Assembly (NCBI GenBank): GCA_963817955.1
Contig: CAWFQK010000002.1
Coordinates: forward strand, 480,001 to 544,000
DNA from: an uncultured Gemmatimonadaceae bacterium
GTDB lineage: Bacteria; Gemmatimonadota; Gemmatimonadetes; Gemmatimonadales; Gemmatimonadaceae
Length of the DNA stretch: 64,000 nucleotides
Direction: 5' to 3'
The notes below the pieces were generated by a model. It made no database searches. It worked only from the letters and a program-made list of their open reading frames with translations, and was not told the DNA's origin. Positions 10,940-42,648 of this stretch are shown one piece after another. Position numbers and translations under genes: made by a program. Numbering within the stretch: the stretch's first letter is position 1; each line of letters starts with the position of its first letter.

Positions 10940-11005
10940 TGGATTTCTGACTCAGGCGTAATAGGAGGACCGTCCGACCCACATCACACGCGCCGCCTGT
11001 TTATA

Positions 11006-11026
11006 TACAATACTCAACGTATTGTA
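11006..11026. promoter_or_regulatory. Palindromic operator-like site upstream of the permease
   Basis: TACAATAC-TCAAC-GTATTGTA, 8-bp perfect arms, ~70 bp upstream of the 10939 start. Confidence 0.5.
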
Positions 11027-11042
11027 AAGCCTGGCAACGCCT

Positions 11043-12989: not shown

Positions 12990-13076
12990 TCACCGGCTCC
13001 GGCTCAATGACGCCGAGCACCAGTCGCGAGCCGGCGTCAGAAGCACGCCGATAGCGCACCGCCCGCAGCCCGTCTC

Positions 13077-13892: not shown

Positions 13893-14204
13893 GGCGCGGT
13901 CGGTGTTCGCTCGAAGGGATGTCACGGGAGACAGATTATACAGGATTCCATAAGAGCGCCACTGGGCCGCGACCGATGGCGATGCGGATATCGACGGATC
14001 TGGGAGGCCTTCACAAGCTACGCATTCAACCACTTTGCCAGACAGACGCTGGTCTTAGGCGACGACGCATACTCCCCATACGCTGCGATTCCGACCAATC
14101 CCACGCTGCAGGAGCTCCGCATTCATGGCTGCAATGAGCGCCGCCGAAACAGGACTGTGTAGCGCCGCATCAGTGATATGCAGCGCATTGCTCGTTGCGA
14201 TCAT

Positions 14205-15206: not shown

Positions 15207-15369
15207 AATCGCTTCCTTGGTTGAGCGTCTCGGGGAGGGGCATCCCAATGTGCGCATCGACAAGAAATTCCGAAAGAGACAAGATCGAAGAGCCGCATCT
15301 CGCTACCATTCCCTTCCCGTTCGCTCGGAATTGTCGCATCACGTTGCGGCCGACGAGGCTCGCCTTTCA

Positions 15370-16500
15370 TCATTTCATACTAGGAAACGAAAGACTATGG
15401 TAAGCGCGTACGGCCGGCGGACAGAAGTCGCAACGGCGCGCCAGCACGCGGAACTGGCTCAGCGTGACGTCGGGTGAGAGAAACCCGGGCTTCACTGGCT
15501 CGACGCGCATCAGATCGGTGCTGAAGTACTTCTGGTTGGAGTCGGCAAACACTGTCGCCACGATCGCGCCGGCGCCAAGCCGTTGCTGTGCCTCGATGGC
15601 GCCGAGGAAGTTGGCGCCGGACGAGATGCCGACGGCCAGGCCCAGCGAACTGGCCAGCGCTTGCGCCATGAGGATCGCGTCGCCGTCATCCACCGCCAGC
15701 ACGTCGTCGAGAAACGCAAAGTCCACGATGGCGGGCACGAACTCGTCAGAGATCCCTTGTATACGGTGTTTGCCCACTTTGTGGCCAGTGGACATGGTGG
15801 GAGAATTGGCCGGCTCGAGCGGAAAGACCTTTGCGTCGGCACGTTGCGCCCTCAGGTAGCGTCCCACTCCCATCACCGTCCCGCCGGTTCCGACGCCGGC
15901 CACGAATGCATCGGGGCCGTTCATGGCGACCGTACAGAGTTGGGCGACTATCTCGGGGCCCGTCGTCAACTCGTGCGCCTCTGGGTTGAAGGTGTTGCTG
16001 AACTGGCGCGGCAGGAACGACCCAGGCGTCCGCGCGCCGAGCGACTCGGCTCGTTCTATGGAACCAAGGAAGCCGCCTTCTGCTTTCGAGACGAGCTGGA
16101 TATCGGCCCCGAGCGAGCGGATGAGGTTGATGCGCTCACTGGACATCCAGTCGGGCATGAAGATCGTCACCGGATTGCCCAACGCACGCCCCAGCGCGGC
16201 GAAAGAAATACCGGTGTTGCCACTGGTCGCCTCGATAATGCGTCCGCCAGGCACGAGCGCCCCGCATTCATAGGCGCGCCGCAGAATGTGAAGCGCCATG
16301 CGGTCCTTGACGCTTCCCGTGAGGTTCATCGATTCCAGCTTCGCGTACACCGTGCGAGGTTCACCGCGAAAGGTGAAGTCGATTGCGGCTAACGGCGAGT
16401 TGCCGACCAGGGCGGTCAGCGACTCGATGCGGTTGAGGGCCGCCGTCGATTCGGCGTCCAGGAGCACAGGCAGGGGCGCGGCTTCAGATGGCGTAGACAT
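15370..16500 (-). CDS. PLP-dependent cysteine synthase family protein
   Basis: [16 protein letters not shown] (PLP Lys); [28 protein letters not shown]. Confidence 0.92.
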
Positions 16501-16771
16501 GGCGTGAAATCTATGGAATGGTCAGCGCACGTAGAGCTCGGCGCTCCCAAAGGGCTTGGAAGGGTTATGTTCGGTCCAAGTTATTCGGTTGCCTTGGTTT
16601 GCGCACCGTGGATGTCGCGCGTCCAGGCGCGACGCCATTGCACATGGCGTAACCCACGTCGGAGTAAGGGGGCTGTAGCATCCGCCAAGTCGTCGTATAA
16701 TGTCGAGCGGCGGGGGAAGGCGAACGGAGTCTCCGCACGAAGACCTTGGCTGTCAACCGAGGTGGTAGACA

Positions 16772-17548
16772 ATGGCATGCCGACATATAGCCTCTATCGC
16801 ACTCATCGCGGCTGCGTGGCAAGCCATGCCGGTAATGGCACAGTCGACGACGCTCGTGGTGAGCGTCGCCGATGCCCATTCCGGTAAACCGCTGATGGGC
16901 GCTCAAGTCCGCCTGCCAACGCTTGGCCGACTCGCGCGTGCAGACTGGCTCGGCGAAACGCGCATCTCCGCCGTGCCGCGCGGACGCTACGAAATCGTAG
17001 TGAGAGCGCTGGGATATGCGCCCTCTGACATCATGCTCGATGTGGCCGGCGATAGCGTGGGCGCCGTGTTCATGCTCGAACCCGTTGCGACTGGATTGGA
17101 TACGGTTCGCGTGTTCGCACCGGTCGTCTCGCAACGCCTGGAACCGTTCGAGATGCGACGCCGGATGGGCATCGGGCGCTTTCTTGCCGAGTCAGCCCTT
17201 GTGAAGGAAGGGACGCGCAGTCTCGCAAACGTTCTCGTAACTCACTTGCCGGGATTGCGACTCGTACCCGACGACCCGGCGTCGTTCATGACGGTCAAGT
17301 CCAGTGGTACGAGCGGCAATATATGGGACTTCGACAACACGGCCCTGGGAACCTGTAAGGTGGATATCTACCTGGACGGCGTTCCGCTCATTGATCACTT
17401 GGAGTCGGTGTTCCCGGCTGACCTGGCGGGTGTCGAACTGTACAACATGTCGTCGGCGCCGGCTCAGTATCGTCAGGCCGCGGGGATTGGCTCACCGGGC
17501 GGCCGATACGCCTCGTGCAAAGTGCTACTACTCTGGACCAAGTTCTAG
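16772..17548 (+). CDS. Exported carboxypeptidase-regulatory-like/plug-like protein
   Basis: Signal peptide; VRALGY; FEMRRRMGIGRF; CKVDIYLDG...GVELY...CKVLLLWTK. Confidence 0.75.
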   Translation: MACRHIASIALIAAAWQAMPVMAQSTTLVVSVADAHSGKPLMGAQVRLPTLGRLARADWLGETRISAVPRGRYEIVVRALGYAPSDIMLDVAGDSVGAVFMLEPVATGLDTVRVFAPVVSQRLEPFEMRRRMGIGRFLAESALVKEGTRSLANVLVTHLPGLRLVPDDPASFMTVKSSGTSGNIWDFDNTALGTCKVDIYLDGVPLIDHLESVFPADLAGVELYNMSSAPAQYRQAAGIGSPGGRYASCKVLLLWTKF

Positions 17549-28895: not shown

Positions 28896-30233
28896 ATGAG
28901 AGTTCCCGCAACAACTTCGATTGAGTCCGCCACACGTCCGGGTTGTGCTCCCGGCGCGGCAACGCGAGCGCAGGCGCGCCCTGCCACCGAAAGCCGGTAC
29001 GCGGCGGTCCGCACCCAGACCGAGGCGCTCTGTACCACGCTCGCGACCGAAGACTATGTCGTCAGCAGCATGCCGGACGTCAGTCCGACCAAGTGGCACC
29101 TGGCGCACACGAGCTGGTTCTTCGAGACGTTCGTTCTCGCCGCGTTTGCGCCGCACTACCGCACGCCCAATCCGAAGTACGCCTATCTGTTCAATTCGTA
29201 CTACGTGCAGGCCGGCGAGCGCCACTGTCGCGCACAACGCGGACTGGTCACGCGACCGACCGTCGCGGAGGTCTTCGCCTATCGTGCGCACGTCGACGAC
29301 GCCATGCGGTCGCTCCTCTCGAGCATCGGCGACGATCCGGTACACCCTGCCCTGCCGTTGGTCGAATTGGGGCTGCACCATGAGCAACAACATCAGGAAT
29401 TGCTCCTGACGGATATCAAGCATGTGTTCTGGACCAATCCCTTACGGCCGACGTATCGGCCGCGGGTGCAGCAGATGGACGCGCGCTCATCCTCTGAGTT
29501 GCGCTGGCATGACATTCCGGCCGGCGTGCGCTCGATCGGACACGCCGGCGGCGGATTCACGTTCGACAACGAGCGCCCAGCACACCGCGTGTTCATCGAG
29601 CCAGTCCGGATCGCGTCGCGTCTCGTCACCAATGCCGAGTATCTCGCCTTCATTCAGGACGGCGGCTACCGTCGACCGGAGTTGTGGTTGTCAGCAGGAT
29701 ATGCGGCGGCTCAGGATGGGCACTGGGAGGCGCCGCTGTACTGGGACCATACAAGCGACAGCTGGACGGAATTCACGCTAACCGGAACCCGTCCGCTCGA
29801 CCCCGCTGCGCCGGCCTGCCACGTGAGCTATTACGAGGCGGACGCATTCGCGCGGTGGGCCGGCCACCGCTTGCCGACGGAAGCGGAATGGGAAGTTGCA
29901 GCCAGCAAAACACCCGTCGATGGGCAGTTCGTGGAAGCTGAGCATTTTCATCCCGCCCCCGCAGAGCAGAACGCAGACGCTGAGTACCCCGCGCAGCTCT
30001 ACGGCGACGTGTGGCAGTGGACCCAGAGCGCCTACACCGCGTATCCTGGTTATCGTCCACCGCCAGGAGCGATCGGCGAATACAACGGCAAGTGGATGTC
30101 GGACCAATGGGTGTTGCGCGGCGCATCATGCGCGACACCTCGAAGCCACGCACGTCTGACGTACAGAAACTTCTTCCCCTCGGCGATGCGATGGCAGTTT
30201 GCCGGCATCCGTCTCGCGGACGACGCGTCGTGA
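28896..30233 (+). CDS. egtB: Ergothioneine sulfoxide synthase EgtB
   Basis: DinB-like domain SPTKWHLAHT, FNSYY, HHEQQHQE iron ligands; FGE-sulfatase domain FDNE.P.H, RLPTEAEWE, GEYNGK, YRNFF. Confidence 0.92.
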   Translation: MRVPATTSIESATRPGCAPGAATRAQARPATESRYAAVRTQTEALCTTLATEDYVVSSMPDVSPTKWHLAHTSWFFETFVLAAFAPHYRTPNPKYAYLFNSYYVQAGERHCRAQRGLVTRPTVAEVFAYRAHVDDAMRSLLSSIGDDPVHPALPLVELGLHHEQQHQELLLTDIKHVFWTNPLRPTYRPRVQQMDARSSSELRWHDIPAGVRSIGHAGGGFTFDNERPAHRVFIEPVRIASRLVTNAEYLAFIQDGGYRRPELWLSAGYAAAQDGHWEAPLYWDHTSDSWTEFTLTGTRPLDPAAPACHVSYYEADAFARWAGHRLPTEAEWEVAASKTPVDGQFVEAEHFHPAPAEQNADAEYPAQLYGDVWQWTQSAYTAYPGYRPPPGAIGEYNGKWMSDQWVLRGASCATPRSHARLTYRNFFPSAMRWQFAGIRLADDAS

Positions 30234-30240
30234 GGAGCGA

Positions 30241-31209
30241 ATGACCTCACCGATCGAACTCCGTGCTGCCCTGGCCGACGTGCACGCGCAACGCTCGGCA
30301 CTCGCCGACGAAGTGTTGCGTGGTTTGCAGGCGCATCCGAAGACGCTGCCGCCGAAACTCTTTTACGACGAGACCGGAGCAAAGTTGTTCGAGGAAATCA
30401 CCGCCCTCCCGGAGTACTACCTGACGCGCGCGGAACTCGAGATTCTCCGCGAGCACGCGTCGGAGATCGCGGCGCTTGCCGGCCCTGGCGCGGCACTCGT
30501 CGAATTCGGGAGCGGCGCCGGCATCAAGGTCCGCCTGTTGCTCGACGCGTTCGAACACCCGGCGGCCTACGTGCCCATCGACGTGTCGCAAGCACAGCTG
30601 GCGAGCGTGGCGAGGGCGGTGGCATCAGACTACCCGGGACTCACCGTTCGTCCGCTATGTGCCGACTACGTCGGCCGCCTCGATCTGCCGCCGTTGCCCA
30701 AGAGCGGACGGCGGGTAGGTTTCTTTCCCGGTTCGACCATCGGTAACATGCATCCGATGGAAGCTGCGGCGTTCCTGCACCGCGTTCGGCGCATGGTCGG
30801 ACCCGCGGGCCAACTCGTGCTCGGTGTCGACCGGCGAAAGGATGCTCAAACACTCGAGGCCGCGTACAACGACTCGGCGGGAGTGACGGCGCGATTCAAC
30901 CTCAACATTCTTTCAAGAATGAACCGCGAGCTGGACGCCGACTTCGACCTCGCACACTTTCGCCATCTGGCATTCTTCAACTCCGACGCGAGTCGAATCG
31001 AGATGCACCTGATGAGCCGCGGCCGCCAGCGAGTCCACGTCGGAGACACGCCGATTGACTTCGAAGACGGCGAAACGATCTGGACTGAGTCGTCGTACAA
31101 GTACGACGAGCGTCGTCTGGAAAACCTCGTCAGAGGCGCAGGCTACGGTGTGGAACGCCTCTGGACTGATCGACGCGAGCAGTTCTGGGTCGCCGTGCTC
31201 AGCACGTGA
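30241..31209 (+). CDS. egtD: L-histidine N-alpha-methyltransferase EgtD
   Basis: KTLPPKLFYDETG..LFEEIT.LPEYYLTRAE; EFGSG; FPGSTIGN; AAYNDSAGVTARFNLN; RIEMHL; TESSYKY. Confidence 0.95.
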   Translation: MTSPIELRAALADVHAQRSALADEVLRGLQAHPKTLPPKLFYDETGAKLFEEITALPEYYLTRAELEILREHASEIAALAGPGAALVEFGSGAGIKVRLLLDAFEHPAAYVPIDVSQAQLASVARAVASDYPGLTVRPLCADYVGRLDLPPLPKSGRRVGFFPGSTIGNMHPMEAAAFLHRVRRMVGPAGQLVLGVDRRKDAQTLEAAYNDSAGVTARFNLNILSRMNRELDADFDLAHFRHLAFFNSDASRIEMHLMSRGRQRVHVGDTPIDFEDGETIWTESSYKYDERRLENLVRGAGYGVERLWTDRREQFWVAVLST

Positions 31210-31877
31210 CGACGCGATCAGCGTCGGATCGGACCATCGTCGTGTTCGTTCGCGCGCCGGAGCGCGGTCGCGTGAAGACTCGTCTCGCCGCCGAACTGGG
31301 GACCGATGAAGCGCTGGGGATCTATCGGCGTCTGGCTGAACACACGCTACGCGCGGTGCGTCAGGTCGGCCATGCGCGTGTCGTGGTGTGTTACACGCCC
31401 GCCGACGCACGAGCGGCCGTTGCGGCGTGGCTTGGCGATGACGTCGAGCTTCGCGCGCAACGAGACGCCGATCTTGGAGTGCGGATGGCCGGTGCAATCG
31501 AGGATGCGCTTGCGGGTGGGACCGGTCCCGTTGCCATAGTTGGAACGGATTGTCCCGGTCTCGATCCGCAGCTCATCGATCGCGCCTTCGCCGAGCTCGC
31601 GAACGCGGATGTCGTTCTCGGCCCCGCGATGGACGGCGGCTACTATCTGCTGGCCGTGAAGCGGAATCACCCTGCCCTGTTCGCCGGCATTCCGTGGAGC
31701 TCGCCCGAGACATTCGCCGCAACGACGTCCGCCGCGGCGGTGGCAGGGCTGCGTGTCGGCCTGCTCGACCAGCGGCGCGACATCGACACGGCCGAGGATT
31801 GGGCGGCGTGGTGTGCCGAGGCGCCAGAGTGGGGATCGTACTCTCTGCCGAACACGTCACGGACCGAGGAGCCTTAG
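31206..31877 (+). CDS. TIGR04282/DUF2064-like transferase (arsenosugar/selenodomain-associated transferase 1)
   Basis: VFVRAPERGRVKTRL; Q...DLGVRM; IVGTDCP; VLGPAMDGGYYL; IPWS; DIDTAED. GTGA overlap with egtD. Confidence 0.9.
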   Translation: MTTRSASDRTIVVFVRAPERGRVKTRLAAELGTDEALGIYRRLAEHTLRAVRQVGHARVVVCYTPADARAAVAAWLGDDVELRAQRDADLGVRMAGAIEDALAGGTGPVAIVGTDCPGLDPQLIDRAFAELANADVVLGPAMDGGYYLLAVKRNHPALFAGIPWSSPETFAATTSAAAVAGLRVGLLDQRRDIDTAEDWAAWCAEAPEWGSYSLPNTSRTEEP

Positions 31878-31990
31878 CAGACTGTTGAAACGGTGCTGGC
31901 CAGAAGTCAGGAAATCGAGGGCATGCTCGCCGAACGCCAAGTTCGGGGGACCCTGTCCGCCTGAGCGAAGGCTGTCATCCTGAGCGAAGG

Positions 31991-32434
31991 CTGTCATCCT
32001 GAGCGAAGCGAAGGATCTCTGTGACCGATAGAGCAGCTTTTGAACGCAGAGGACGCAGAGAACTGCAAGAGAACTACCAGAGAACTGCAAAAGACCACTG
32101 CAAAAAACTGCAAACGAAAAACTGGAAGATGGAACTGTAAAGATAATTGTAAACGAGAACTGTGAAGGTACGGAAGAGGAAAGCGCGTATCGGTGGAATG
32201 AACCGTGTTTGCCGAGTCCACAATCATTCCGCCTATATCATTGATGATCCCGACCTGGGCGATACCATCGGAGCGTCACGACGGCATCATTCAAGACTTC
32301 CAGCGAGACAATCCTTCACGGCCCTCTACAGTTCTCGTGCAGTTCTCTGCGACCTCCTGCAGTTCTCTGCGTCCTCTGCGTTGAAAAGCTGGTCTATCGG
32401 TCACAGAGATCCTTCGCTGCGCTCAGGATGACAG
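31991..32434. repeat. Inner element: 77-bp inverted arms with REP-like ends around the conserved core (copy 2)
   Basis: 31991-32067 matches the reverse complement of 32358-32434 at 74/77 positions; the arms begin CTGTCATCCTGAGCGAAGCGAAGGATCTCTG. Confidence 0.9.
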
Positions 32435-32630
32435 CATTGCTCAGGATGACAGCATTGCTCAGGATGACAGCATTGCTCAGGATGACAGCATTGCTCAGGT
32501 TGACAGCGTTGCTCAGGATGACAGCATTGCTCAGGATGACAGCATTGCTCAGGTTGACAGCGTTGCTCAGGATGACAGCATTGCTCAGGTTGACAGCGTT
32601 GCTCAGGATGACAGCATTGCTCAGGATGAC
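32421..32630. repeat. 18-bp tandem repeat, 11 full units plus one partial
   Basis: Unit A GCTCAGGATGACAGCATT and unit B GCTCAGGTTGACAGCGTT in the order AAAABAABABA plus a partial unit. Confidence 0.97.
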
Positions 32631-32713
32631 GGGCCGTCGCTCCGGACGACAAGCCACGATCTTCGCACCCGCGTGACTAATTGCTGGCGATTCACTCGTC
32701 GTTCAACAGTCTG

Positions 32714-33406
32714 TTAGCTCCCACCAGGCTTGTTCGGCCGATAAAGTAATGCCAAACGCGTGGGAGCGACGCCCGCCGAATACGCGGCGAGCAGCATCCA
32801 GTTACGGGCGGTTCGCTTGAAGACTCCGTCCGTCGCCCAACGCCGTGCCGATACCGTGACGCACTCGCGGAGCGTGACGATGCGTGAGTGCGCTCTGAGT
32901 CGGCGCACGAACTCGACGTCCTCCATCAGCGGGAGCGGCGCGAACCCGCCCGCTCGATCGTAGGTGGTCCGGGTGAGTATCAGCCCCTGGTCGCCGTAGG
33001 GGAGACCGGCCAGTCGTGACCGCGCATCGGTTCCCCACTCCACCATTCTGTACGGCCACGCGTCCGCGGCGATCCGCAAGGCAAACGCGTACGCCACGCC
33101 GTCCGCACGTTGACCGACGACTCGATCGAGTGCTGCTCGCGCATCCTCGTCCAGGCGCGTGTCGGCGTGCAGGAAACAGAGCACATCACCCTGTGCGACC
33201 GCGGCGCCGGCGCGTAACTGATGGCCGCGCCCGCGCGGCGCAGCGACGACCTGTGCGCCCGCCTGGGCAGCGATGAGCGCCGTATCGTCGCTGCTGCCGC
33301 CGTCGCACACGATCACTTCATGCGGAGCTCGCACGCCCTCCAAGTCGTGGAGCAGCGAGGGCAGATCATGCTGCTCGTTGAGCGCCGGGATGACGATCGA
33401 AAGCAT
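32714..33406 (-). CDS. TIGR04283-like GT2 glycosyltransferase (transferase 2)
   Basis: LSIVIPALNE; DGGSSDDT; GRGHQL; FLHADT; LPYGDQGL; PLMEDVE; SARRW. Confidence 0.92.
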   Translation of the reverse strand: MLSIVIPALNEQHDLPSLLHDLEGVRAPHEVIVCDGGSSDDTALIAAQAGAQVVAAPRGRGHQLRAGAAVAQGDVLCFLHADTRLDEDARAALDRVVGQRADGVAYAFALRIAADAWPYRMVEWGTDARSRLAGLPYGDQGLILTRTTYDRAGGFAPLPLMEDVEFVRRLRAHSRIVTLRECVTVSARRWATDGVFKRTARNWMLLAAYSAGVAPTRLALLYRPNKPGGS

Positions 33407-33419
33407 GCCTGACTCCGGC

Positions 33420-34889
33420 CTAAGCCGCGTCTGAAGCGGACAGCGTTTCGAGCGACATCCCCGCTCCCTCGATCCCCCAGACCGACCACGGGACCATAGC
33501 GAGAGCGCCCGCGAGCCACATGATCGCAAGCGCCACAAATCCGCCGGTAATCCCGAGCGGCCCCTTCGCGATCCAGACCAACAACGGCGCGCTGGCGGCC
33601 GCGCCGATTCGCCCGACGCCAACGGATAGCCCAACCCCTGTCGACCGCAAGCGTGTCGGGAAGATCTCGGTGAATGTCGGATACGCCGTCGTCCACGCGC
33701 CGGTGCCGAAGAAATTCGCCGCCACGAACGCCGACAGGACCCACGCCCCGCTATGTGTCGCCGCCGCGGGCGCCATGAGCGCCGCGCCTGCCGCAGCCAA
33801 CACGTAGAACATCGGCACCGTGATGCGCCGGCCGAGTCGGTCGATCACACTCGCTCCGGTCAGGCCGCCCGCCAGCGCGCCGACGTTTCCAAGGAAGAAG
33901 AACCACGGAATCTGACTGTCGGGAATGTGGACTGCAGGAAGGACGACCAACGGCAGAAAGGCAAAGATACCGTAGTACCCGAACGCTTCGGACAGATCCA
34001 GCGCGCACCCAAGCGCCGTACGAGCCGGGTACACGCGAACGAGCTCCCACACTTGAGCAAAGAAGGGGGGTGTGTTCCCCGCGCGTAGGCTCTCAGCGTT
34101 CGTTGATGAGCGCATCAGTGGTGTAGCAGACACCAGCGCGGCTGAGGGCTGCCCCGCCGCCACTTCGATTTCGTCGATGACCAGCGCGGCTTCGTCGGTC
34201 CGTCCCTTGGCGAGCAACCATCGTGGCGATTCGGGGAGGCTGCGCCGCATCCAGAGGATGAACAGCGCGCCGACTCCACCGATGCCAAATCCGAGGCGCC
34301 ATCCGACATTGGCGGCGAACAGATTGATGAAGTAGAGGTTGGCCAGCGCAGCGATCATCGCGCCGACCGGCCAGAAATTCATCACCAATGAGTTGACCTT
34401 CCCACGATGGCGTGGCGGAATCAGCTCACTGATCGCGGAGTTGACTGCCGTGTACTCGGCGCCCACGCCGATCGCGGTCAGGAAGCGGAACGTCATCAGG
34501 AACCAGTAGCTGGTCGACAGCGCCGTGATGATCGTACAGGAGGAATACAGCAGCAAGGTGCCGATGAAGAGCCGCTTTCGCCCGAACCGATCGGCCAGAT
34601 AGCCGAAGACGAAGGCGCCAACCATGATACCGATGAGCCAGATGCTCACCACCCACGCGGCCTCACTATCGGTGAGATGGAAGACCTTCGCGATCACTCC
34701 GATCACACTTCCCACAATATTGACTTCGAACGAATCGAGCAGCCATCCGATGCCCAGGACGGCGGTGATGCGCGTGTGAAAACGGCTCCATCGCAGGTGA
34801 TCCAAACGGCTCGTCAGCAGTTCGGGCGTGGCCGGCACCCGCGACGCGAGGGATGCGATACTCCCGACTTCCGCGCAGCGTTCACGCAT
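33420..34889 (-). CDS. MFS transporter
   Basis: GYLADRFGRKR and IDRLGRR MFS motif A repeats; EIFPTRLRSTG; ~12 TM helices; TGATG coupling to the upstream gene. Confidence 0.92.
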   Translation of the reverse strand: MRERCAEVGSIASLASRVPATPELLTSRLDHLRWSRFHTRITAVLGIGWLLDSFEVNIVGSVIGVIAKVFHLTDSEAAWVVSIWLIGIMVGAFVFGYLADRFGRKRLFIGTLLLYSSCTIITALSTSYWFLMTFRFLTAIGVGAEYTAVNSAISELIPPRHRGKVNSLVMNFWPVGAMIAALANLYFINLFAANVGWRLGFGIGGVGALFILWMRRSLPESPRWLLAKGRTDEAALVIDEIEVAAGQPSAALVSATPLMRSSTNAESLRAGNTPPFFAQVWELVRVYPARTALGCALDLSEAFGYYGIFAFLPLVVLPAVHIPDSQIPWFFFLGNVGALAGGLTGASVIDRLGRRITVPMFYVLAAAGAALMAPAAATHSGAWVLSAFVAANFFGTGAWTTAYPTFTEIFPTRLRSTGVGLSVGVGRIGAAASAPLLVWIAKGPLGITGGFVALAIMWLAGALAMVPWSVWGIEGAGMSLETLSASDAA

Positions 34890-35713
34890 CAAAACCTCCC
34901 TCGTGCGCGTTCCTTGCCCGGAAGAATCTCGAGGCAGGTCGTCCACCAGCCGGTCCGAATGGTCTCGATGAATTCGTCTGGCAGACGCTCGTCTCGCATC
35001 TCGTCCGCCAGCGCGTCGACGTCGTACCGCACCGGAATGAACTCGACGGTGAGCGGCCTTCCGTCACCACGGTCCTCGCGCGGCACCTGGAGTATCGAAT
35101 ACCACACCACTGGCGTTCCGTCGTTCGCTGGCCGGCCAAGCGCGCCCACGTTCACGTGCCAGTTTCCCTGCGCCACTCGGCGTTGCCAGTGAATTCCCGT
35201 GTGTGTCGCGAGCGTGACGTCGCAATCGTAGTCACGATGCAGCTTCTCGAGAAAGTGCGTCGGGGTGGCGCTCTCCCAGAGGAACTCGTTCATCTGCCGC
35301 GGACTGCCGTGGCAGCAGAGCACGCGCAGCCCGCCCAGGTCGAAACGAAACTCGCTGGGCAGCGTGGCGAGCCACGCGCGATTCGCCGGCGACGTGTTGG
35401 CGTACGTGTACTGATAGGAGAGGCGGCCAAAGTAGTTGTCGCGTGGATCGGTGTAGCCGCATTGACAGTCGTCGAGGCCGCGGGCGACCGAATCGTCGTA
35501 GTTGCCGCGCATGACCTGAACGCCGTGCTCTCGCAGCAGCGGGAAGACCTTGTCGGGGCTCGGACCGAATGCGCCGAGGTCCCCGAGGCAATACAGCGCG
35601 TCGACACCGCGCTCGCGAGTGTCGCGCAGCGCCGCAGCCAGCGCGACGTGGTTGGAGTAGACGCCGCCGAATACGGCGATGCGGTGCATTGCGTTCAACG
35701 GTGGCCCACTCAC
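34889..35713 (-). CDS. Atypical metallophosphoesterase-family protein
   Basis: IAVFGGVYSN; CLGDL; GNYD; CQCGY; CHGSP; THTG; NVGALGRP. Start is GTG 35713 (overlapping the rSAM stop) or ATG 35689. Confidence 0.82.
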   Translation of the reverse strand: MSGPPLNAMHRIAVFGGVYSNHVALAAALRDTRERGVDALYCLGDLGAFGPSPDKVFPLLREHGVQVMRGNYDDSVARGLDDCQCGYTDPRDNYFGRLSYQYTYANTSPANRAWLATLPSEFRFDLGGLRVLCCHGSPRQMNEFLWESATPTHFLEKLHRDYDCDVTLATHTGIHWQRRVAQGNWHVNVGALGRPANDGTPVVWYSILQVPREDRGDGRPLTVEFIPVRYDVDALADEMRDERLPDEFIETIRTGWWTTCLEILPGKERARGRF

Positions 35714-36692
35714 GAGAGTCCCTCGATGGACGCCGGCGCGTTGGCGCAGATCGCGCCGCTCGCGTAGCAGGTGTAACACGCCGAGTCGATGAGTGCGGCC
35801 GGCCGGATCACGGCCTCGCCGAGCGTCATACCGAGTCGCGCGCTTGGTCGGTCGAGGAGAATTGGACACGCATACACGGCTTGCTCGGTGACGAGTCGCG
35901 CGCGCGAGCAGAGGAGCTGGTCCAGGTCGAAGCCGTGCAGCATCTCGTGCGTCACACGGTCTTCTGGCGCATAGCCGTGCGTTCGCGTGGCCTCGCCGCC
36001 AATGCGCAGCGGTGGCAGAATCTTGAGTCGCGGCCGGTGATAGTCGACGCTCGCGAGCAGGTCGCGGAACGCACGCAGGACGGCGACTCCTTCGTCGTCC
36101 GCCCACGTCTGCATCGCCGTGATGATGGGCAGGAAACCGGCAGCGACGAGCTCACGAATGCCGGCTAGCGCGCGCGCGAAGCTGCCCTCGCCGCGAATGT
36201 CGTCGTTCATGGCCGGCGTGGTGCCATCCAGCGAGACGCGCAGCTCGAGCGTGTACGGCGACCCAGCCGCGACATCCGCTAACGCGCGCGCGGTGCGACT
36301 GAGCACGAGAGTCGCGTTCGTGAGCACGGTCGCCGGCCCGTAGACGAGCGCGTCGCCGAGCATGGGCACGATCTCCCGGTGCATGAACGGCTCGCCGCCC
36401 GTGAAGTAGTATTCTCTGACTCCGAACGCCACCGACTCACGAAGCGCCGCACGGACCTGAGCGCGAGTCATGAACCAGAAGGAATGGTTTTGCGGCGTGC
36501 AACGGATGAAGCAGTGCCGACAGCGCAGGTTGCAGACGGTGCCGCTCACCTGAAACCAGAGCTGGTCCAGCGCGGCGAGCGGGACGCTTGGCGCGCTGCG
36601 TGCGCGGACAGCGCCAGCTGCACGAGCGGCGGTTCGCCGGCGTGTGGCGGGTGCTCGTTCGCGAGCGCGAGATTGCTGATCCTTTTCGTCAT
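35710..36692 (-). CDS. Radical SAM protein, distantly ArsS-like; probable frameshift near the 5' end
   Basis: APSVPLAALDQLWFQVSGTVCNLRCRHC (CxxxCxxC); FTGGEP; LTNATL; RVSLDG; C-terminal CSRAR..YACP..CYTCYASGAIC. The nearest usable upstream ATG (36692) is in another frame. Confidence 0.85.
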
Positions 36693-36714
36693 CCTTGATT
36701 CATCTCCGTCGCCC

Positions 36715-38121
36715 TTACCGGCGCACGTACCAGTTCGTGACGCGCTGCACGATCCCGGTGAAGCGCGAGCGCGTATACGACTCCGCCGCTTGCCGGATCG
36801 CCTCAGGATACGTGGGGTACGCATGCATCGTGTTGCCGAGCGCTCCGGCGGAGATCCCGTGCTTCATGGCAAGCACGATCTCGCCGATCAAATTGCCTGC
36901 GCCGTGCCCAAGAATATGTCCGCCCAGGATCCGGCCTTTGCGGTCAGTCACGAGCTTGACCAGCCCTTCGGGTCTGCCGTCCACGATCGCGCGATCCACA
37001 TCACTGAAAGCGCGGCGCCAGATGCGCACGTCGCCGCTGAACCGTTCCCGCGCCTCCTTCTCGGTGAGGCCAACATGGGCGAGCTCGGGCTCCGTGAACG
37101 TCACCCACGGCACGGCTGAGTAATCCACGCTCGAGTGAAACGGAAAGAACGCGTTGCGGATGACGAGCCGCGCCTGGTAATCCGCAACATGCGTGAATCG
37201 CAGCGGTCCGATGCAGTCGCCCGCTGCCCAAACGCCGCGCGCCGTGGTGCGGAGCTGATCGTCGACGACGATGCCGTCCTTCGTCGCCTGCACGCCAGCC
37301 TTTTCCAGATCGAGCGACGCGAGATTCGGCGTCCGGCCCGTCGCGACCAGGAGCGCATCGCCCTCGAACACCGGCGCGTTGCCGATCCCGGTGTGAAGCT
37401 GCACGCGACCACCCGTTTGGGTTGCGCGTTTCACGGCGGTGCCGAGATGGATCTCGACGCCCTCAGTTCCAAGCCGGTCGCCCAGCAGTTCCGCCAGCTC
37501 GTGGTCCTCACGCGGAAGGAGCTGCGATGCCGCTTCGATGACCTGCACGCGAGTCCCGAGTCGCGCGAATGCCTGCGCCAACTCCAAACCGATGGCGCCG
37601 GCACCGAGAATCAGCAGCGTCTTCGGCTGCCGCTCGAGCGAGAAGACGGTCTCGTTCGTGAGGTACTTGACGTCGGCCAGACCATCGATAGGCGGAACGG
37701 CGGGCTTCGTGCCCGTCGCGATGACGATGCGCTTCGCCGTGAGCGAACGCCCGTCAACGTCGAGCGTGCGATTACCGGTGAAGCGGGCGCTACCTTCAAC
37801 TACCTCGACTCCGAGCGAGCGAAAGCGGTCGGGACTGTCATGTGGGGCGATGCGATGTTGCGCCTCGTGCACCCAATCCATGACAAGACCGAAATCCAGT
37901 TCCATTGCGCTCGTATTCACACCAAACCGAGATGCATACCGCGTGTCATGCGCCGCGCGAGCCGCCGCGATGAGCGCCTTGCTCGGCACGCAGCCGTTCC
38001 ACAGGCACTCGCCACCCAGCCGGTTTCGCTCGATGAGCGCGACGCGCGCACCGATTCCTGCGCTGCCGGCAGCAGTAACAAGCCCTGCGGTCCCGCCCCC
38101 AACCACGATAATATCGTACAT
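36715..38121 (-). CDS. Class I pyridine nucleotide-disulfide oxidoreductase (Lpd/MerA-like, without the MerA C-terminal Cys pair)
   Basis: GGGTAG; GGECLWNGCVPSK redox disulfide; GAGAIGLE; ATGRTPN; AAGDC; HAYPT. Confidence 0.9.
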   Translation of the reverse strand: MYDIIVVGGGTAGLVTAAGSAGIGARVALIERNRLGGECLWNGCVPSKALIAAARAAHDTRYASRFGVNTSAMELDFGLVMDWVHEAQHRIAPHDSPDRFRSLGVEVVEGSARFTGNRTLDVDGRSLTAKRIVIATGTKPAVPPIDGLADVKYLTNETVFSLERQPKTLLILGAGAIGLELAQAFARLGTRVQVIEAASQLLPREDHELAELLGDRLGTEGVEIHLGTAVKRATQTGGRVQLHTGIGNAPVFEGDALLVATGRTPNLASLDLEKAGVQATKDGIVVDDQLRTTARGVWAAGDCIGPLRFTHVADYQARLVIRNAFFPFHSSVDYSAVPWVTFTEPELAHVGLTEKEARERFSGDVRIWRRAFSDVDRAIVDGRPEGLVKLVTDRKGRILGGHILGHGAGNLIGEIVLAMKHGISAGALGNTMHAYPTYPEAIRQAAESYTRSRFTGIVQRVTNWYVRR

Positions 38122-38296
38122 CGACCCTCGCTCAGATCGCGCCATGGCCGGCTACGCAGCAGCCACCGCGACAAGTCACAGGCGATGCCAAGAGTTCCCA
38201 GGTGAACGTGTGAGACTGCCAGCAAGGGCGGGAACCACGCCGAGCTTGCGGGACTTGTCAAGTTAGCGTTTACCCGGATTCCCGAGGTCTTTCGCA

Positions 38297-38983
38297 ATGC
38301 CCAAGCCCGCCGCAGTCAAGCTCGGCCTGTTCGTGGCGGTCCTCGCGGCGATCGCGCTTGTCGCTTGGCGGCTTGGTTTCTTCCAGCTCGCGCATCCGGC
38401 GACCCTTGCGCGGGCCGTCCGATCGGTCCGCGCGCATCCGTTCGCGGGACCACTGTTCGTCGCCGCGTACACGCTGGCGATCATGTTTGGGCTGCCGGGC
38501 TCCGCGTTCACACTCGCGGGCGGCGCGATATTCGGCTTCTGGTGGGGACTGCTGCTCAATTGGCTCGGCGCTCTCGCAGGCGCGACGCTAGCATACCTGT
38601 TCGCCCATGCGCTCTGCGGCGACGTCTGCCGCTCGCTGCTCGGCCGGTACAGCAGCAAACTCGAGCAGGCCGCGCAGTCGCACGGTCTGATGGCGACGTT
38701 GCGACTGCGTCTCATTCCAGTCGTCCCGTTCAACCTTCTCAACTTTGGCGCAGCGCTCGCGGGCGTTCCATTTCGCGATTACGTGCTCGCCACTGCGGCC
38801 GGCATCATTCCCGGCACGGCTGTCTACACGTACTTTGCCGACGCACTGTTGAGCGGAGCCGCGGGCGCGAGCCGGCACGCCTTGCTCAACGTCAGTCTCG
38901 CGGGCGCGCTGTTGCTGGCGATGTCATTTGTGCCGACGCTCGTGCGGAAAATGCGCGGCACGCGCCAGACATCACGATCATGA
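38297..38983 (+). CDS. TVP38/TMEM64 (VTT, DedA superfamily) membrane protein
   Basis: LPGSAFTLAGGAIFG; LRLIPVVPFNLLNF; GIIPGT. Confidence 0.92.
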   Translation: MPKPAAVKLGLFVAVLAAIALVAWRLGFFQLAHPATLARAVRSVRAHPFAGPLFVAAYTLAIMFGLPGSAFTLAGGAIFGFWWGLLLNWLGALAGATLAYLFAHALCGDVCRSLLGRYSSKLEQAAQSHGLMATLRLRLIPVVPFNLLNFGAALAGVPFRDYVLATAAGIIPGTAVYTYFADALLSGAAGASRHALLNVSLAGALLLAMSFVPTLVRKMRGTRQTSRS

Positions 38984-39049
38984 ATGGCACATGGACGAAG
39001 CACCGAGCATTCTGCTTCTGGTGCGTGCTCGCATAGCCCCGACATTCAC

Positions 39050-39790
39050 ATGGCAGAGCTCAGCGATCTTCCCCTACGTCATCGCCTCACGCTCGCAGTG
39101 TACTCGTGGCGGCGCAACGACCCTGTTCCGTGGTCGCCGCTTGCGAAGCCAATCGAGCGCGCGCGCCTGGCTCTGGTGACAAGCGCCGGCCTGTACCAGC
39201 GAGATGTCGACGCGCCGTTCGCAGAGACACGTGGCGGCGATACCAGCTTTCGCGTCATTCCGGACGACGTGGATCTACAGACGCTGCTTATCGGGCAGAC
39301 CAGTGACGCATTCGACCGGCGTCCCCTCGAGCAGGACCGGAACGCGGGGTTTCCGCTGGATCGATTGCACGAGCTCGTGGAGGACGGAACGATCGGTGCT
39401 GCCGCCCCGCGTCACATCAGCATCAACGGTTCGATCACGGCGCCGGGACGGCTCGTGCGTGAAACCGGGCCGAAGGTGGCCGAGATACTCCGAGCGGATC
39501 AGGTCGACGCCGCGCTCTTCGTGCCCGTGTGACCCATGTGTACGCAGTCCGTGGGACTGCTCGCGGGTGTGCTCGAGGCGCATGGCGTCAGCACGGTGTG
39601 CATTGCGCTCCTACGGGACGTGGCCCGGCACGTTCGGCCGCCGCGGGCGCTCGCTGTGCCGTTTCCCTTCGGGCTCCCGCTCGGTAGCGCGAGCGACGGT
39701 GGCCAACAGCGCTCCGTGATCCGCGCGGCGCTCGCGCTGTTGCGCGAAGGGGGGCCGGGGCCGGTGTTGCGCGATTATGTGATTACATGA
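39050..39790 (+). CDS. GrdB/PrdB-like selenoprotein B family protein; selenocysteine at UGA 39530-39532
   Basis: PWSPLAKP...LALVTSAG...GDTSFRVIP...DRNAGFPLDRLHEL...VDAALFVPV-TGA-PMCTQSVGL...EAHGVSTV...PPRA. Two in-frame ORFs join through one UGA to give a UxxC motif. Confidence 0.88.
39530..39568 (+). promoter_or_regulatory. Bacterial SECIS-like hairpin
   Basis: 11 nt after the UGA: GCAGTCC-GTG-GGACTGC (39544-39560), a 7-bp stem whose loop begins GU; lower pairing ACCC/GGGT. Confidence 0.75.
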
Positions 39791-39889
39791 TAAGGCGCCG
39801 ATGACGACGCCGGCCTCGTTCCACTGGCTTGTCGGGCTCACGCCATTTGCGTATACTGCCTATGCCACTTGACACTTCCGAGGACTCCA

Positions 39890-40330
39890 ATGACGGCCAC
39901 CGCGATTGCGCACCTACTTGGTGGACGAAGCGTTCTCGGACGGACCGTCCGCACGGACAGCGAACTGATCGCCGCGGTCCGCGACGGATTGCCGTTTCTC
40001 GCCCTGCGGCACCTGTTCGATGAGTTTGCCTCCACCGATCTGGCCGTGCAGGAGATGTACTCCTTGGTAGGGAGCCCGCGGACGCTTCAGCGCAAGCAGG
40101 CAGCGCGGACGCGCCTGACTGCGGCGGAGTCGGATCGCGTGGCGCGGGTCGCGCGCGTGCTGGCGCGTGCCGAAGAGGCCATCGGCGACAAGGCACGGGC
40201 GCGCCTCTGGCTGACGGAGCCCACGGCCGCACTTGGAGGGCGTCGCCCTGTGGAGTTGCTCGACAGCGACCTCGGCACCGGGCAGGTCGAGCGTGTGCTG
40301 GGCCGTATTGAGCACGGCGTCTATGAGTAG
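39890..40330 (+). CDS. Xre/MbcA/ParS-family antitoxin
   Basis: LIAAVRDGLP; RTLQRK...LTAAESDRVARVARV; ARLWL..P..ALGGRRPVELLD...VERVLGRIEHGV. Confidence 0.9.
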   Translation: MTATAIAHLLGGRSVLGRTVRTDSELIAAVRDGLPFLALRHLFDEFASTDLAVQEMYSLVGSPRTLQRKQAARTRLTAAESDRVARVARVLARAEEAIGDKARARLWLTEPTAALGGRRPVELLDSDLGTGQVERVLGRIEHGVYE

Positions 40331-40333
40331 TCG

Positions 40334-40787
40334 GTGCTGATCTACCGCCTGTCGCGCAAGAAACACGCGGCGCTCGACGGCGAAGGGGCGCGCCTCTACG
40401 GGGGCCGCTGGAACAGCGCCGGACGGCCGGTCGTCTACGCGTCGGCGACCCTTTCGCTGGCGGTGCTCGAGCGTCTCGTGCACCTCTCGCTGAAGACACT
40501 CCCCCCCGATCTGGTCGCCTACAGCATCGACGTCCCGGACGAATTCGGCCGTCCCGACCATCGCCGTTGCGCTCCCGGCCGATTGGCGCACCCCGGGCTG
40601 TGCCGCCTGCCGCGACGCGGGCGATGCCTGGCTCGTCGCCGGGACATCCGTCGTCCTCAAGGTGCCGTCGGCTGTCGTCGCGGGGGAGTTCAACTTCCTC
40701 GTGAACCCCCTGCATCCCGACCTCGCGCGCCTCTCGGTGCGCACCACGATCCCATTCGCATTCGACCCGCGGCGGTTGGCGCCGTAA
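40334..40787 (+). pseudogene. RES-domain toxin, frameshifted near 40547 (or a sequencing error)
   Basis: YRL...GEGARLYGGRWNS.G.PVVY.S...LAVLE.LVH; homology continues in another frame as LPADW...GDAWL...LKVPSAVV.GEFNFLVNPLHPD...FDPR, stop TAA at 40785-40787. Confidence 0.85.
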
Positions 40788-40858
40788 GCACCCGCGGGGA
40801 AACCGTTAGATAGCATGTTGTCAAATCGTCGTTGGACCCCATCAGGAGCACGCGCTCG

Positions 40859-41359
40859 ATGTTAGATCCCGTTACCGTAGTCGCGAGCAGTTTGTTCGGA
40901 ATTCCATTCGGGCTGTTGGGTCTTCACGGTATCTCCCGTTGGCTCGGCAAGCGCCGGAACCGCCAGCAGCTCTGCGGGCACTGCGCGGGACCGCTCTACG
41001 CCAGCGCGAGTCGCGACAGCCCCGCGCTCCTGGAAGGCATTCACATCTGTTCGCCGTGCGCCGCGAACAATGCGAAGCGACTGGGGCGAGTTCTCCGAAT
41101 CGTCGCGGGACTCGCACTCGTCTCGATTGGCTCCGGCATCGCCCTGGCAGTCGTCATGGGCGGCATTTGGTGGGCGGCTCCCTTGTTCGCGGGTCTGGAG
41201 TCCGCAGTGCTCTATGGAGGCACGCTCGCATGGATGAAGCGAGCGAATCGACGGCGAGCGACTGCGCTGATGGCTGCGCGTGAGGGCTCAGGTGGCTCCC
41301 CCGCTCAGTCGTCCGCGCGAATCTTCCTCAGCAGCGTCTGCTGCTGCTCCGTGAGCTGA
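40859..41359 (+). CDS. Hypothetical membrane protein with a CxxC...CxxC zinc ribbon
   Basis: TM helix, CGHC, CSPC, two more TM helices; the 3' end overlaps the convergent gene and is uncertain. Confidence 0.6.
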   Translation: MLDPVTVVASSLFGIPFGLLGLHGISRWLGKRRNRQQLCGHCAGPLYASASRDSPALLEGIHICSPCAANNAKRLGRVLRIVAGLALVSIGSGIALAVVMGGIWWAAPLFAGLESAVLYGGTLAWMKRANRRRATALMAAREGSGGSPAQSSARIFLSSVCCCSVS

Positions 41360-41955
41360 TTCTTGATGCGGATCATCAGGGAGAGCTGAGCGCGCTTGAT
41401 CTCTCGCTCGCCGGCGAGCACCCGATCGATCTGGTCGAGCACTTTGCTCTCGTCCACCGTCGTGTTGTTCAACAACGACTGCAGCTTCTCGACTTCGCCG
41501 CTCATCTTGAACTGCAGATCGACGAACTTGGCTTGCGCGTCCTTCGCTGCTGATTGAATTGCCGCGCGTTGGCGATCCGTGAGACCGATCGCCTGTTGGT
41601 GCGCCATCACGAGGTCGGGCGGGAACATGAATTGGCTGAGTGGATCGCTGCCGCCCGGCGCCGCGGTGAGAATCTCCAACGTGTCGCCGCGAACACAGCG
41701 GCCGAAGGGCGAGCGATCTCCTCGCGTCGTGATGATGATGACGCCCTGACCCGGTCTGTTGCCGAACTGGGCCGCGGCCTTGGGACCTTTTCGTACTTCG
41801 AGCTGCTCGATCTGGTCTTGATCGAGGCAGATCGGGCCGCCGCCGGCAATAGAGAGCTTGGGACGAAGCATGATCTGCGTCGCCGGCTCGCCTTGCGCCC
41901 CGGCGGCGGACGCCGCGAACAGCATGATCCCCGCTACGACAGACAGCGTTTTCAT
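41305..41955 (-). CDS. Exported Spy/CpxP (periplasmic heavy-metal-sensor)-like protein
   Basis: RBS AAAGGAG; signal MKTLSVVAGIMLFAASAAGAQ; FPPDLVMAHQQAIGLTDRQ ... IKNQLTEQQQ (LTxxQ motifs). Confidence 0.8.
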   Translation of the reverse strand: MKTLSVVAGIMLFAASAAGAQGEPATQIMLRPKLSIAGGGPICLDQDQIEQLEVRKGPKAAAQFGNRPGQGVIIITTRGDRSPFGRCVRGDTLEILTAAPGGSDPLSQFMFPPDLVMAHQQAIGLTDRQRAAIQSAAKDAQAKFVDLQFKMSGEVEKLQSLLNNTTVDESKVLDQIDRVLAGEREIKRAQLSLMIRIKNQLTEQQQTLLRKIRADD

Positions 41956-41957
41956 TG

Positions 41958-42235
41958 TCAGTCTCCTTTGCGTTCGATGACTCGCGCCGGCGCGCTCACC
42001 GCGCCGTCGAGTACTGAAGAAAGAATCGAGGAGTTCGTCAGCGCACCGGTATGCGTGCCGCGCATCAGTCCGGCGGTTGGGGACCTCCACTCCGTGATCG
42101 TCGGCGACCGAAACACCACCGTTGGACTCGCGGTGTTCGAGCCCCGCGCACGCACGGTGAGGAGCGCCCCGACCGCGAGCATGACGACCGCCGCAGCGGC
42201 GAGCCAGATCCACCTGCCGCTCGATCTCGAGCGCG
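41958..42235 (-). pseudogene. 5'-truncated anti-sigma-like membrane protein
   Basis: WIWLAAAAVVMLAVGALL TM segment then WRSPT; lacks its own N-terminus; lies between the sigma and Spy-like genes. Confidence 0.5.
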
Positions 42236-42648
42236 CCCTCGATGGTCACCCCGTGATAGAACACGAGTTGCAGTACCTCTCGCTGTCGTGGTGACAGCGC
42301 GTCCAACGCCGCGATCAGTACCGCACGTCGATCAGACTCGTCGATGATCGCGTCGACGGGAGTCGCCGGATCAGCGAGCTCGATCGCCGCGCCCGCGTCA
42401 TCGTCGCGGGCGAAGCGCGTTCGTCGCCGCCGCATCTCTTCCATGGCGGCGAACCGAATGACGCCGAACACCCACGTCTTGAGCGCGGATGATGCGCCGA
42501 ACTTCGCTTGCCCCGAGAGAATGCGGAGGTAGGCGGTCTGCAGCGCATCTTCCGCGAGCTCGCGATCACGCCCACAGCACGCGAGCGCCCAGGCCCACGA
42601 GTCCGCATGCATCCGGACCAACTCTCTCTTCAGCTCGGATGATCGCAT
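42236..42648 (-). pseudogene. ECF sigma-70 factor truncated in region 4
   Basis: AEDALQTAYL; KTWVFGVIR; LDALSPRQREVLQLVFYHGVTIE, then homology stops before the recognition helix. Confidence 0.75.

Follow-up and report, generated by a model that had tools for sequence, protein, structure and literature searches.

The window analysed here is a stretch of 64,000 nucleotides from the genome of an uncultured Gemmatimonadaceae bacterium (G000:C2:480001-544000; G000 denotes this genome, which measures 4.5 Mb in 9 contigs and is an estimated 94% complete, and window positions are counted from its first letter). It carries an operon encoding, in this order, a flavin disulfide reductase (FDR), an enzyme of the radical S-adenosylmethionine (SAM) type (rSAM) from a family that has no name and that we call A1, a protein of the metallophosphoesterase fold (MPE), an MFS transporter and a TIGR04283 glycosyltransferase, to which a convergent TIGR04282 gene and a divergent gene for a VTT membrane protein are added. 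This cassette is a real and undescribed variant of the arsenosugar-type cassette, with a possibly broken rSAM gene in the genome at hand. As to the region as a whole, we consider it probable that it is a mosaic of an ordinary egtB-egtD module of ergothioneine synthesis, an ArsS-less variant of the TIGR04282/TIGR04283 cassette and a PrdB-like UxxC selenoprotein added in the lineage, that the cassette performs rSAM-led chemistry on a metalloid, most likely arsenic, and that its junction with egtBD is accidental. The protein relatives of the window bear names of Gemmatimonadota or Longimicrobiales. The genes that the initial annotation had named were all recovered in our scans and the tight packing that it described is real; its claim that the block is one unit was deduced from that packing rather than observed.

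ArsS (TIGR04167) is linked by published work to the arsenite methyltransferase ArsM, and TIGR04282 and TIGR04283 are companions of the arsenosugar pathway in NCBIfam, named from co-occurrence. Gene identities were assigned from Pfam and NCBIfam hidden Markov model (HMM) scores judged against the curated cut-offs, in samples of 121 Gemmatimonadota and 151 Planctomycetota genomes; in Gemmatimonadota an A1 rSAM was called above 400 bits. TIGR04282 was present in all 11 Gemmatimonadota genomes that hold an A1 rSAM, this genome included, compared with 38 of 121 overall, in 10/10 such Planctomycetota genomes compared with 72 of 151, and, over the cut-off, in all five A1-bearing genomes from other groups. 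Among the 38 Gemmatimonadota genomes with TIGR04282, 12 hold an ArsS over the cut-off, 11 an A1 rSAM and 7 an rSAM match within a frame of 819-1031 aa, with zero overlap, and all 30 genomes with ArsS, A1 rSAM or a long rSAM-methyltransferase frame lie within these 38. For the long-frame type, the example in locus L122 was confirmed as a fusion of rSAM/SPASM and an ArsM-like domain, those in L120 and L123 were confirmed by tblastn and the other four are assigned by frame length. TIGR04282 genomes that have an rSAM partner carry one of three mutually exclusive types of it, namely A1, ArsS or an rSAM-methyltransferase fusion. The tallies include unpublished genomes (G097 and G057 among the 38 with TIGR04282, G097 among the 12 with ArsS, and G126 among the 19/31 EgtD-positive ones), and their removal alters no conclusion.

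The same association is seen at the level of loci. In 35 TIGR04282-anchored loci from 35 Gemmatimonadota genomes, the two unpublished genomes being left out, TIGR04283 was found nearby in 21 and FDR and VTT together in 12. A second set is anchored on the rSAM and consists of 80 loci, each with flanks of up to 10 kb, drawn from Gemmatimonadota, Planctomycetota, Acidobacteriota, KSB1, Bacteroidota, Latescibacterota, Myxococcota, Verrucomicrobiota and Alphaproteobacteria. In 47 of these loci the MPE gene directly follows the rSAM gene, downstream and in the same orientation, and in 55 it is no farther than 10 kb away; when only rSAMs of 43% identity or more are counted, it accompanies 52 of 62. 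Co-occurrence in both loci and genomes supports the earlier proposal that TIGR04282 and TIGR04283, together with an rSAM, a phosphoesterase, a flavoprotein and VTT, form a recurring, uncharacterised system linked to metalloids. The rSAM-MPE pair is a widespread module that has no name.

The rSAM gene (35710-36692, minus strand) belongs to the radical SAM superfamily by its CxxxCxxC motif, CNLRCRHC, and by its match to PF04055 (55.7 bits against a cut-off of 29.5). None of the NCBIfam models was reached over its cut-off, the top one being Rv1681 (98 against 380). ArsS as the identity of this enzyme was ruled out, as it scores 47.7-48.2 bits against the 300 required by the ArsS model and only its N-terminal core can be aligned: when the A1 profile was compared by hhalign with seven ArsS proteins of Gemmatimonadota, A1 positions 47-186 aligned to ArsS positions 10-147 only (136 columns, 31% identity, probability 98%). 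Radical_SAM and Fer4_12 were the only Pfam domains in the rSAM, and the Cys/Sec-rich C-terminal domain of the ArsS type was not matched over its full length. An HMM search across the genome found no ArsS over the cut-off anywhere in G000. Five cysteines are conserved in the C-terminal part of the rSAM and would be compatible with an auxiliary Fe-S cluster. Searches by structure and fold retrieved generic relatives of the twitch/SPASM type (BlsE, SkfB, MoaA) at template modelling (TM) scores of about 0.5-0.58 and gave no functional clue, and a homologue stored in the ESM Atlas fell into clusters annotated as 'Radical SAM protein' only. The A1 family is large: among the candidates scored, 4246 proteins reach E <= 0.001, and species genomes hold it at 591 or more confirmed places.

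The usual partner of the rSAM, the MPE (34889-35713, minus strand), scores over the cut-offs of Metallophos_2 (38.5 against 27) and Metallophos (33.9 against 21.5), and its orthologues in different phyla are 49-72% identical. The canonical ligand motifs of metallophosphoesterases are DxH, GD, GNH, H and GHxH. At these positions 16 orthologues of the MPE carry GGxYxN in place of DxH, LGD, GNY in place of GNH, HGSP, and HTG in place of GHxH, so that the full set of ligands for a dinuclear metal centre is lacking, and C83, C85, C260 and a GWWTTCLE tail are invariant among the orthologues. An AlphaFold2 model of the MPE (mean predicted local distance difference test, pLDDT, of 88) and profile searches both led to SapH (Spr1479, PDB 3QFM), an asymmetric diadenosine tetraphosphate (Ap4A) hydrolase and phosphodiesterase, as the top match, with a profile E value of 2.9e-17 and fold TM scores of 0.73-0.81. 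SapH DIHGN corresponds to GVYSN in the MPE and SapH GHIH to HTG, whereas the three invariant cysteines and the GWWTTCLE tail have no counterpart in SapH. As three of the seven canonical ligands, in the alignment to SapH and by the general ligand list, are replaced in the MPE, one of the two metal sites appears to have been removed.

The assignment of this chemistry to arsenic comes from the neighbours and fusion partners of the A1 rSAM. ArsM-like genes adjoin it in 5 of the 80 loci, and in two KSB1 loci (L026 and L030) they stand between rSAM and MPE. In two Planctomycetota genomes (G280 and G210) a full-length A1-type rSAM, which scores 297-318 bits on the A1 model and is 41-42% identical to the rSAM of the window, is joined to an ArsM-like domain. 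In locus L161 (2055-3833, plus strand) and in L162, which is from G210, the two are in one frame, the open reading frame (ORF) of L161 being 592 aa long. The second copy in G210 (L163; 4333-7374, plus strand) has the rSAM match and the first part of the ArsM-like domain in an ORF of 525 aa that directly follows TIGR04283-TIGR04282, the end of the domain being in a different frame, possibly through a frameshift. The Gemmatimonadota cluster of L122 is composed of TIGR04282, VTT, FDR, TIGR04283, DUF547, an 819-aa rSAM/SPASM-ArsM fusion (14892-17351, plus strand) and a PHO4 transporter. In the cluster of the window itself there is no arsenite methyltransferase, and it is not a cassette of the ArsM-ArsS type. 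Absence of arsM and selD from the window, which the initial annotation had noted, holds true, both genes being on contig 4. The only ArsM of G000 over the cut-off (C4:795950-796774; 357 bits against 263) lies beside Acr3.

The rSAM encoded beside the ArsM gene on contig 4 is not a partner of ArsM; it belongs to a cluster of haem genes and is a TIGR04053/AhbD-like enzyme. The FDR (36715-38145, minus strand) is a class I FAD/NAD(P)H disulfide oxidoreductase with the Pfam domains Pyr_redox_2 and Pyr_redox_dim and the redox motif GGECLWNGC; it is not the mercuric reductase MerA, as it stays below the cut-off of TIGR02053 (399.7 against 454.45) and has no C-terminal pair of cysteines. It also scores below NF004991 (524 against 620).

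Based on these data we propose a route in which a methylated trivalent metalloid, most likely arsenic, would be supplied by the unlinked ArsM of this genome and would be alkylated by the rSAM. The SapH-like MPE, having kept one canonical metal site, may then cleave a phosphoester or phosphoanhydride of the nucleotide type in the intermediate. TIGR04282, which has a nucleotidyltransferase fold, would activate the sugar part, and TIGR04283, a glycosyltransferase of family 2 (GT2), would transfer the sugar. The FDR, possibly together with the selenoprotein, would keep the metalloid or its thiol ligands reduced, and the MFS and VTT proteins would serve transport. We know of no description of the steps that follow ArsS in arsenosugar synthesis, and in the part of the literature that lies outside subscription journals we found no experimental account of TIGR04282/TIGR04283, of the rSAM-MPE pair or of a link between ergothioneine and arsenic methylation.

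It is also conceivable that the core of TIGR04282, TIGR04283, VTT and FDR is not specific for arsenic and provides general glycosylation of the envelope or of small molecules together with redox functions, the rSAM-MPE pair feeding into it a compound of selenium, tellurium or sulfur, or a 5'-deoxy-sugar derived from SAM. In 75 of the 80 A1 loci there is no ArsM-like gene within 10 kb, the ArsM of this genome is unlinked, and the core occurs without a nearby rSAM in loci such as L100-L103; moreover, a selenoprotein and the full selenocysteine (Sec) machinery are present here, and it was co-occurrence that gave TIGR04282 and TIGR04283 their names, with no experimental paper on either found outside subscription journals. 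All three types of rSAM partner nevertheless connect to methyltransferases of the ArsM type, ArsS by published work and the others by fusion, and L122 includes the PHO4 transporter, which is of the phosphate/arsenate type. We regard such a core without a preference for arsenic as unlikely.

In this assembly the rSAM gene of the window is interrupted by a break in the reading frame, which the initial annotation had overlooked. The break lies at about 36592-36594, so that the first 33 codons (MTKRISNLAL..., from the ATG at 36692) are in a frame other than that of the remainder, while the homologues, 65-80% identical, are unbroken proteins of 312-328 aa that start MTK.I.NLAL... and continue ...VPL.ALDQLWFQVSGTVCNLRCRHC. 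The database gene call at this place on the contig is a fragment of 253 aa that lacks the CxxxCxxC motif. Public sequencing runs were searched for the stretch and none holds it (best share of words 0.09); for this reason an error of the assembly and a true pseudogene are indistinguishable.

A second disturbance is an insertion between the two transferase genes. Their stop codons originally shared a 4-bp TTAG, and the initial annotation had placed the insertion of a miniature inverted-repeat transposable element (MITE) exactly there. This is borne out by terminal inverted repeats and by the TTAG duplication, within which TIGR04282 has its TAG stop and, on the complementary strand, TIGR04283 its TAA stop. 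The element (31878-32713) has inverted repeats of 12 nt at its termini, tandem arrays of 18-19-nt units at either end and many copies in the genome (366 blastn high-scoring segment pairs (HSPs) in G000, the copies being 72-88% identical over 230-555 nt), as expected of a MITE, its freedom from a transposase being judged from its size of 836 bp only.

From these two features the cluster could be read as decaying in this genome, a remnant in which the rSAM gene is a pseudogene and the MITE marks lost selection; such a reading is compatible with the others. The frameshift follows codon 33, and a restart at GTG 36549 would drop residues that are invariant in the family (P34-Q47 of the A1 alignment); the database call without the CxxxCxxC motif and the position of the MITE between the transferase genes agree with such a loss. 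Set against this, there is one break only in about 11 kb, the other genes are full length and, wherever there is a model for the family, over its cut-off, the MITE lies precisely between two stop codons that are both intact, and a single-base error of the assembly is possible as no public run holds the stretch. We hold decay to be possible, if rather doubtful.

Upstream of the cassette lie egtB (28896-30233, plus strand), which encodes an ergothioneine sulfoxide synthase (TIGR03440, 574.7 bits against 360) with DinB_2 and FGE-sulfatase domains, and egtD (30241-31209, plus strand), which encodes a histidine N-alpha-methyltransferase (TIGR03438, 393.2 against 290.9). The stop of egtB is separated by 7 nt from the ATG of egtD, and GGAG precedes the egtD start. 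The stop of egtD overlaps the start of the TIGR04282 gene (31206-31877, plus strand; 210.7 bits against 134; Pfam DUF2064, NTP_transf_3 and CofC) in the sequence GTGA, a junction as tight as claimed earlier. The selenoneine synthase SenA was rejected as the identity of EgtB, which is over the cut-off of TIGR03440 and below that of the SenA model (NF041186; 342.3 against 420). Nothing was found that ties the cluster to chemistry of the selenoneine type, as no gene of the window matched the family model of selD/SenC; SenB was not searched.

The initial annotation had made egtBD a part of the pathway, and this part of its proposal did not withstand the comparison of loci. EgtB and EgtD are absent from all 80 loci anchored on the rSAM and from all 35 anchored on TIGR04282. 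A third set was taken from the same family, in which 13 genomes supplied 14 egtD loci; 13 of these loci keep the egtB-egtD pair, and none of the 14 has TIGR04282. EgtD and TIGR04282 occur together in 22 of the 151 Planctomycetota genomes, and wherever they share a contig they are at least about 550 kb apart. In a genome of the same genus (G143), synteny with the window at the level of DNA covers egtBD alone and the context differs; in that genome no rSAM of this type and no such selenoprotein could be found. TIGR04282 itself is patchy in the host family: of 28 other genomes, only 2 have it. Overall, it is in this genome alone that egtBD has such a junction, which looks like a local rearrangement in a variable region, which also holds the MITE and a toxin-antitoxin pair, rather than a conserved pathway link.

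With these counts in mind we can weigh the idea that the whole block is one pathway, in which a thiol derived from ergothioneine or hercynine would be the substrate, carrier or ligand that the rSAM and the transferases adenosylate, glycosylate or join to a metalloid, the FDR and the selenoprotein providing reduction. The idea draws on the GTGA shared by egtD and TIGR04282, on the TTAG that the transferase genes shared prior to the MITE, on an FDR orthologue located 7.6 kb from egtD in another genome (G098), and on the selenoprotein lying within the cluster in both G000 and G040. It is contradicted by the absence of EgtB/EgtD from the 80/80 and 35/35 loci, by the separation of TIGR04282 from egtD in the same family and in 22/22 Planctomycetota genomes, by G040, in which the gene coupled to TIGR04282 is an unrelated ORF of 256 aa, and by EgtB being a normal EgtB rather than SenA. 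We therefore consider a single pathway highly unlikely. A bolder version, to which we give very little credence, is that ergothioneine synthesis is wired transcriptionally into a metalloid-sugar pathway, ergothioneine being the thiol carrier or acceptor of an organo-metalloid sugar derived by the rSAM, for example through S-glycosylation by TIGR04283, with the FDR and the UxxC selenoprotein as a reducing pair driven by NAD(P)H. Ergothioneine acts as a sugar carrier in lincomycin biosynthesis, which would be a precedent, and if the proposal were true, sulfur would be conjugated with selenium or arsenic in a product of a kind not yet described.

Two observations concern the loci just named. In G098 the two HSPs that cover egtB differ in frame, possibly through a frameshift. 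In the cluster of G040 (locus L095, features at 8986-9756 on the plus and 11894-14490 on the minus strand), TIGR04282 is coupled by a 4-nt overlap to the 256-aa ORF, which has no family match, and the MFS gene is replaced by an ORF of 525 aa weakly like a sodium/solute symporter and another of 368 aa without a match.

The selenoprotein gene (39050-39790, plus strand) encodes 246 aa and has an in-frame TGA at 39530-39532. The earlier description of a UxxC protein resembling GrdB and PrdB was borne out by a match to Pfam GRDB (29 bits against 22) and by the alignment of the TGA with a cysteine: Sec161, in the motif U-P-M-C, corresponds to the invariant cysteine in PVCPMC[NT]Q of nine full-length Cys homologues, and conservation continues past the TGA. 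G000 has SelA, a SelD gene that contains TGA, and tRNA-Sec. For the 66 nt that surround the TGA a folding energy of -30.4 kcal/mol was obtained, which is not significant (z = -1.57; 14 of 200 shuffles were as stable), and accordingly the reading as Sec relies on the alignment and on the Sec machinery. Most homologues in the database end at 160 aa, which is the position of the TGA, and several of those from Gemmatimonadota are named 'selenoprotein B family protein'. The tRNA-Sec gene lies directly beside selD, which has an in-frame TGA (G000:C4:449339-450454).

Membership of the selenoprotein in the system, also claimed at first, is weakly supported. The protein was found in 13 of the 121 Gemmatimonadota genomes, 9 of which also have TIGR04282, and it lies inside the cluster only here, 66 nt behind the VTT gene, and in G040, where by coordinates its start spans the stop of TIGR04283 and its 3' end converges on TIGR04282. 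None of the other 11 selenoprotein loci has a cluster gene within about 8 kb, and a PrdB-like protein occurs in none of the 80 rSAM-anchored loci. As the gene occupies two different positions in two related genomes, its embedding speaks weakly for membership and suggests that the selenoprotein has been attached functionally in this lineage and has no core role. The embedded selenoprotein and the coupling to egtBD are two local twists of the cassette in this genome.

Several points weigh against the mosaic reading that we favour. Since related genomes are not independent, we give no probabilities for the co-occurrence counts, which overstate the support that they lend. The assignment to arsenic is one by association only, and the A1 rSAM has an ArsM nearby in just 5 of 80 loci. 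The ArsM of this genome belongs to a plain resistance locus, ArsM-Acr3, on a different contig. With its frameshifted rSAM gene and its MITE, the cluster may be inactive in this genome. The GTGA overlap of egtD and TIGR04282 implies their co-transcription in this genome, which an accidental junction does not predict. In locus L131 of G098 (features at 544-2010 on the plus and 9651-11906 on the minus strand) an FDR 71% identical to that of the window is located about 7.6 kb from egtD, with genes for a TonB receptor and an ABC transporter between them. Finally, the selenoprotein is embedded in both copies of the cluster that the host family has.

The remaining genes of the cassette are as tightly packed as the initial annotation had claimed. 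The rSAM stop and the MPE start overlap in GTGA, and the MPE stop overlaps by 1 nt the start of the MFS gene (33420-34889, minus strand), whose product resembles sugar or metabolite symporters (Pfam Sugar_tr and MFS_1, 155 bits each; no NCBIfam model over its cut-off). TIGR04283 (32714-33406, minus strand; 254.2 bits against 182) was taken to start at MLSIVIPALNE, 13 nt past the MFS stop. Divergent from the FDR gene is that of the VTT/TVP38 (DedA-type) membrane protein (38297-38983, plus strand; VTT_dom, 94.3 against 33.9). The base composition across the locus is unremarkable, the MITE excepted. Directly past the selenoprotein gene there is a toxin-antitoxin pair (39869-40813, plus strand), made up of an antitoxin of the Xre/MbcA/ParS type (153 aa) and a RES-domain toxin (159 aa), and farther on an ORF of 447 aa (41305-42648, minus strand) combines regions 2 and 4 of a sigma-70 factor of the extracytoplasmic function (ECF) type with a C-terminal Metal_resist domain (heavy-metal resistance).

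When the parts of the mosaic are compared with known systems, the egtB-egtD module departs from the ordinary EgtB/EgtD module in that egtD is translationally coupled to a TIGR04282 gene, which is so in this genome only. The selenoprotein shares with selenoprotein B (GrdB/PrdB) of the glycine, sarcosine, betaine and proline reductases the C-terminal region of Pfam GRDB (positions 209-344 of 347) and the Sec of the UxxC motif. It differs from them in that it is just 246 aa long and below the cut-offs of the equivalog models (PrdB, TIGR04483, 125 against 300; GrdB, TIGR01917, 25.3 against 602), and in that its PrdB-like family is frequent among Gemmatimonadota in loci that lack reductase partners. 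The GrdA model (PF04723) matched none of 14 control genomes, and its lack of a match in G000 is uninformative.

The cassette can likewise be compared with the ArsM/ArsS arsenosugar pathway, on which there is work in Synechocystis. Unlike in that pathway, the rSAM of the window fails the ArsS model and its C-terminal half cannot be aligned with ArsS, A1 was never found in a genome with ArsS among the genomes sampled, ArsM is outside the cluster, and FDR, VTT, MFS and selenoprotein genes are attached. In common with it, TIGR04282 and TIGR04283 are both over their cut-offs, an rSAM and a phosphoesterase-type protein are clustered with them, ArsM is encoded in the genome, and the core of the A1 rSAM is distantly homologous to ArsS. 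A1 appears to be a second rSAM family that takes the place of ArsS, being widespread, always accompanied by TIGR04282, exclusive of ArsS and sometimes fused to ArsM, and together with the remodelled one-metal phosphoesterase it provides concrete candidates for an undescribed route to organo-arsenic compounds, or to those of another metalloid, in soil phyla.

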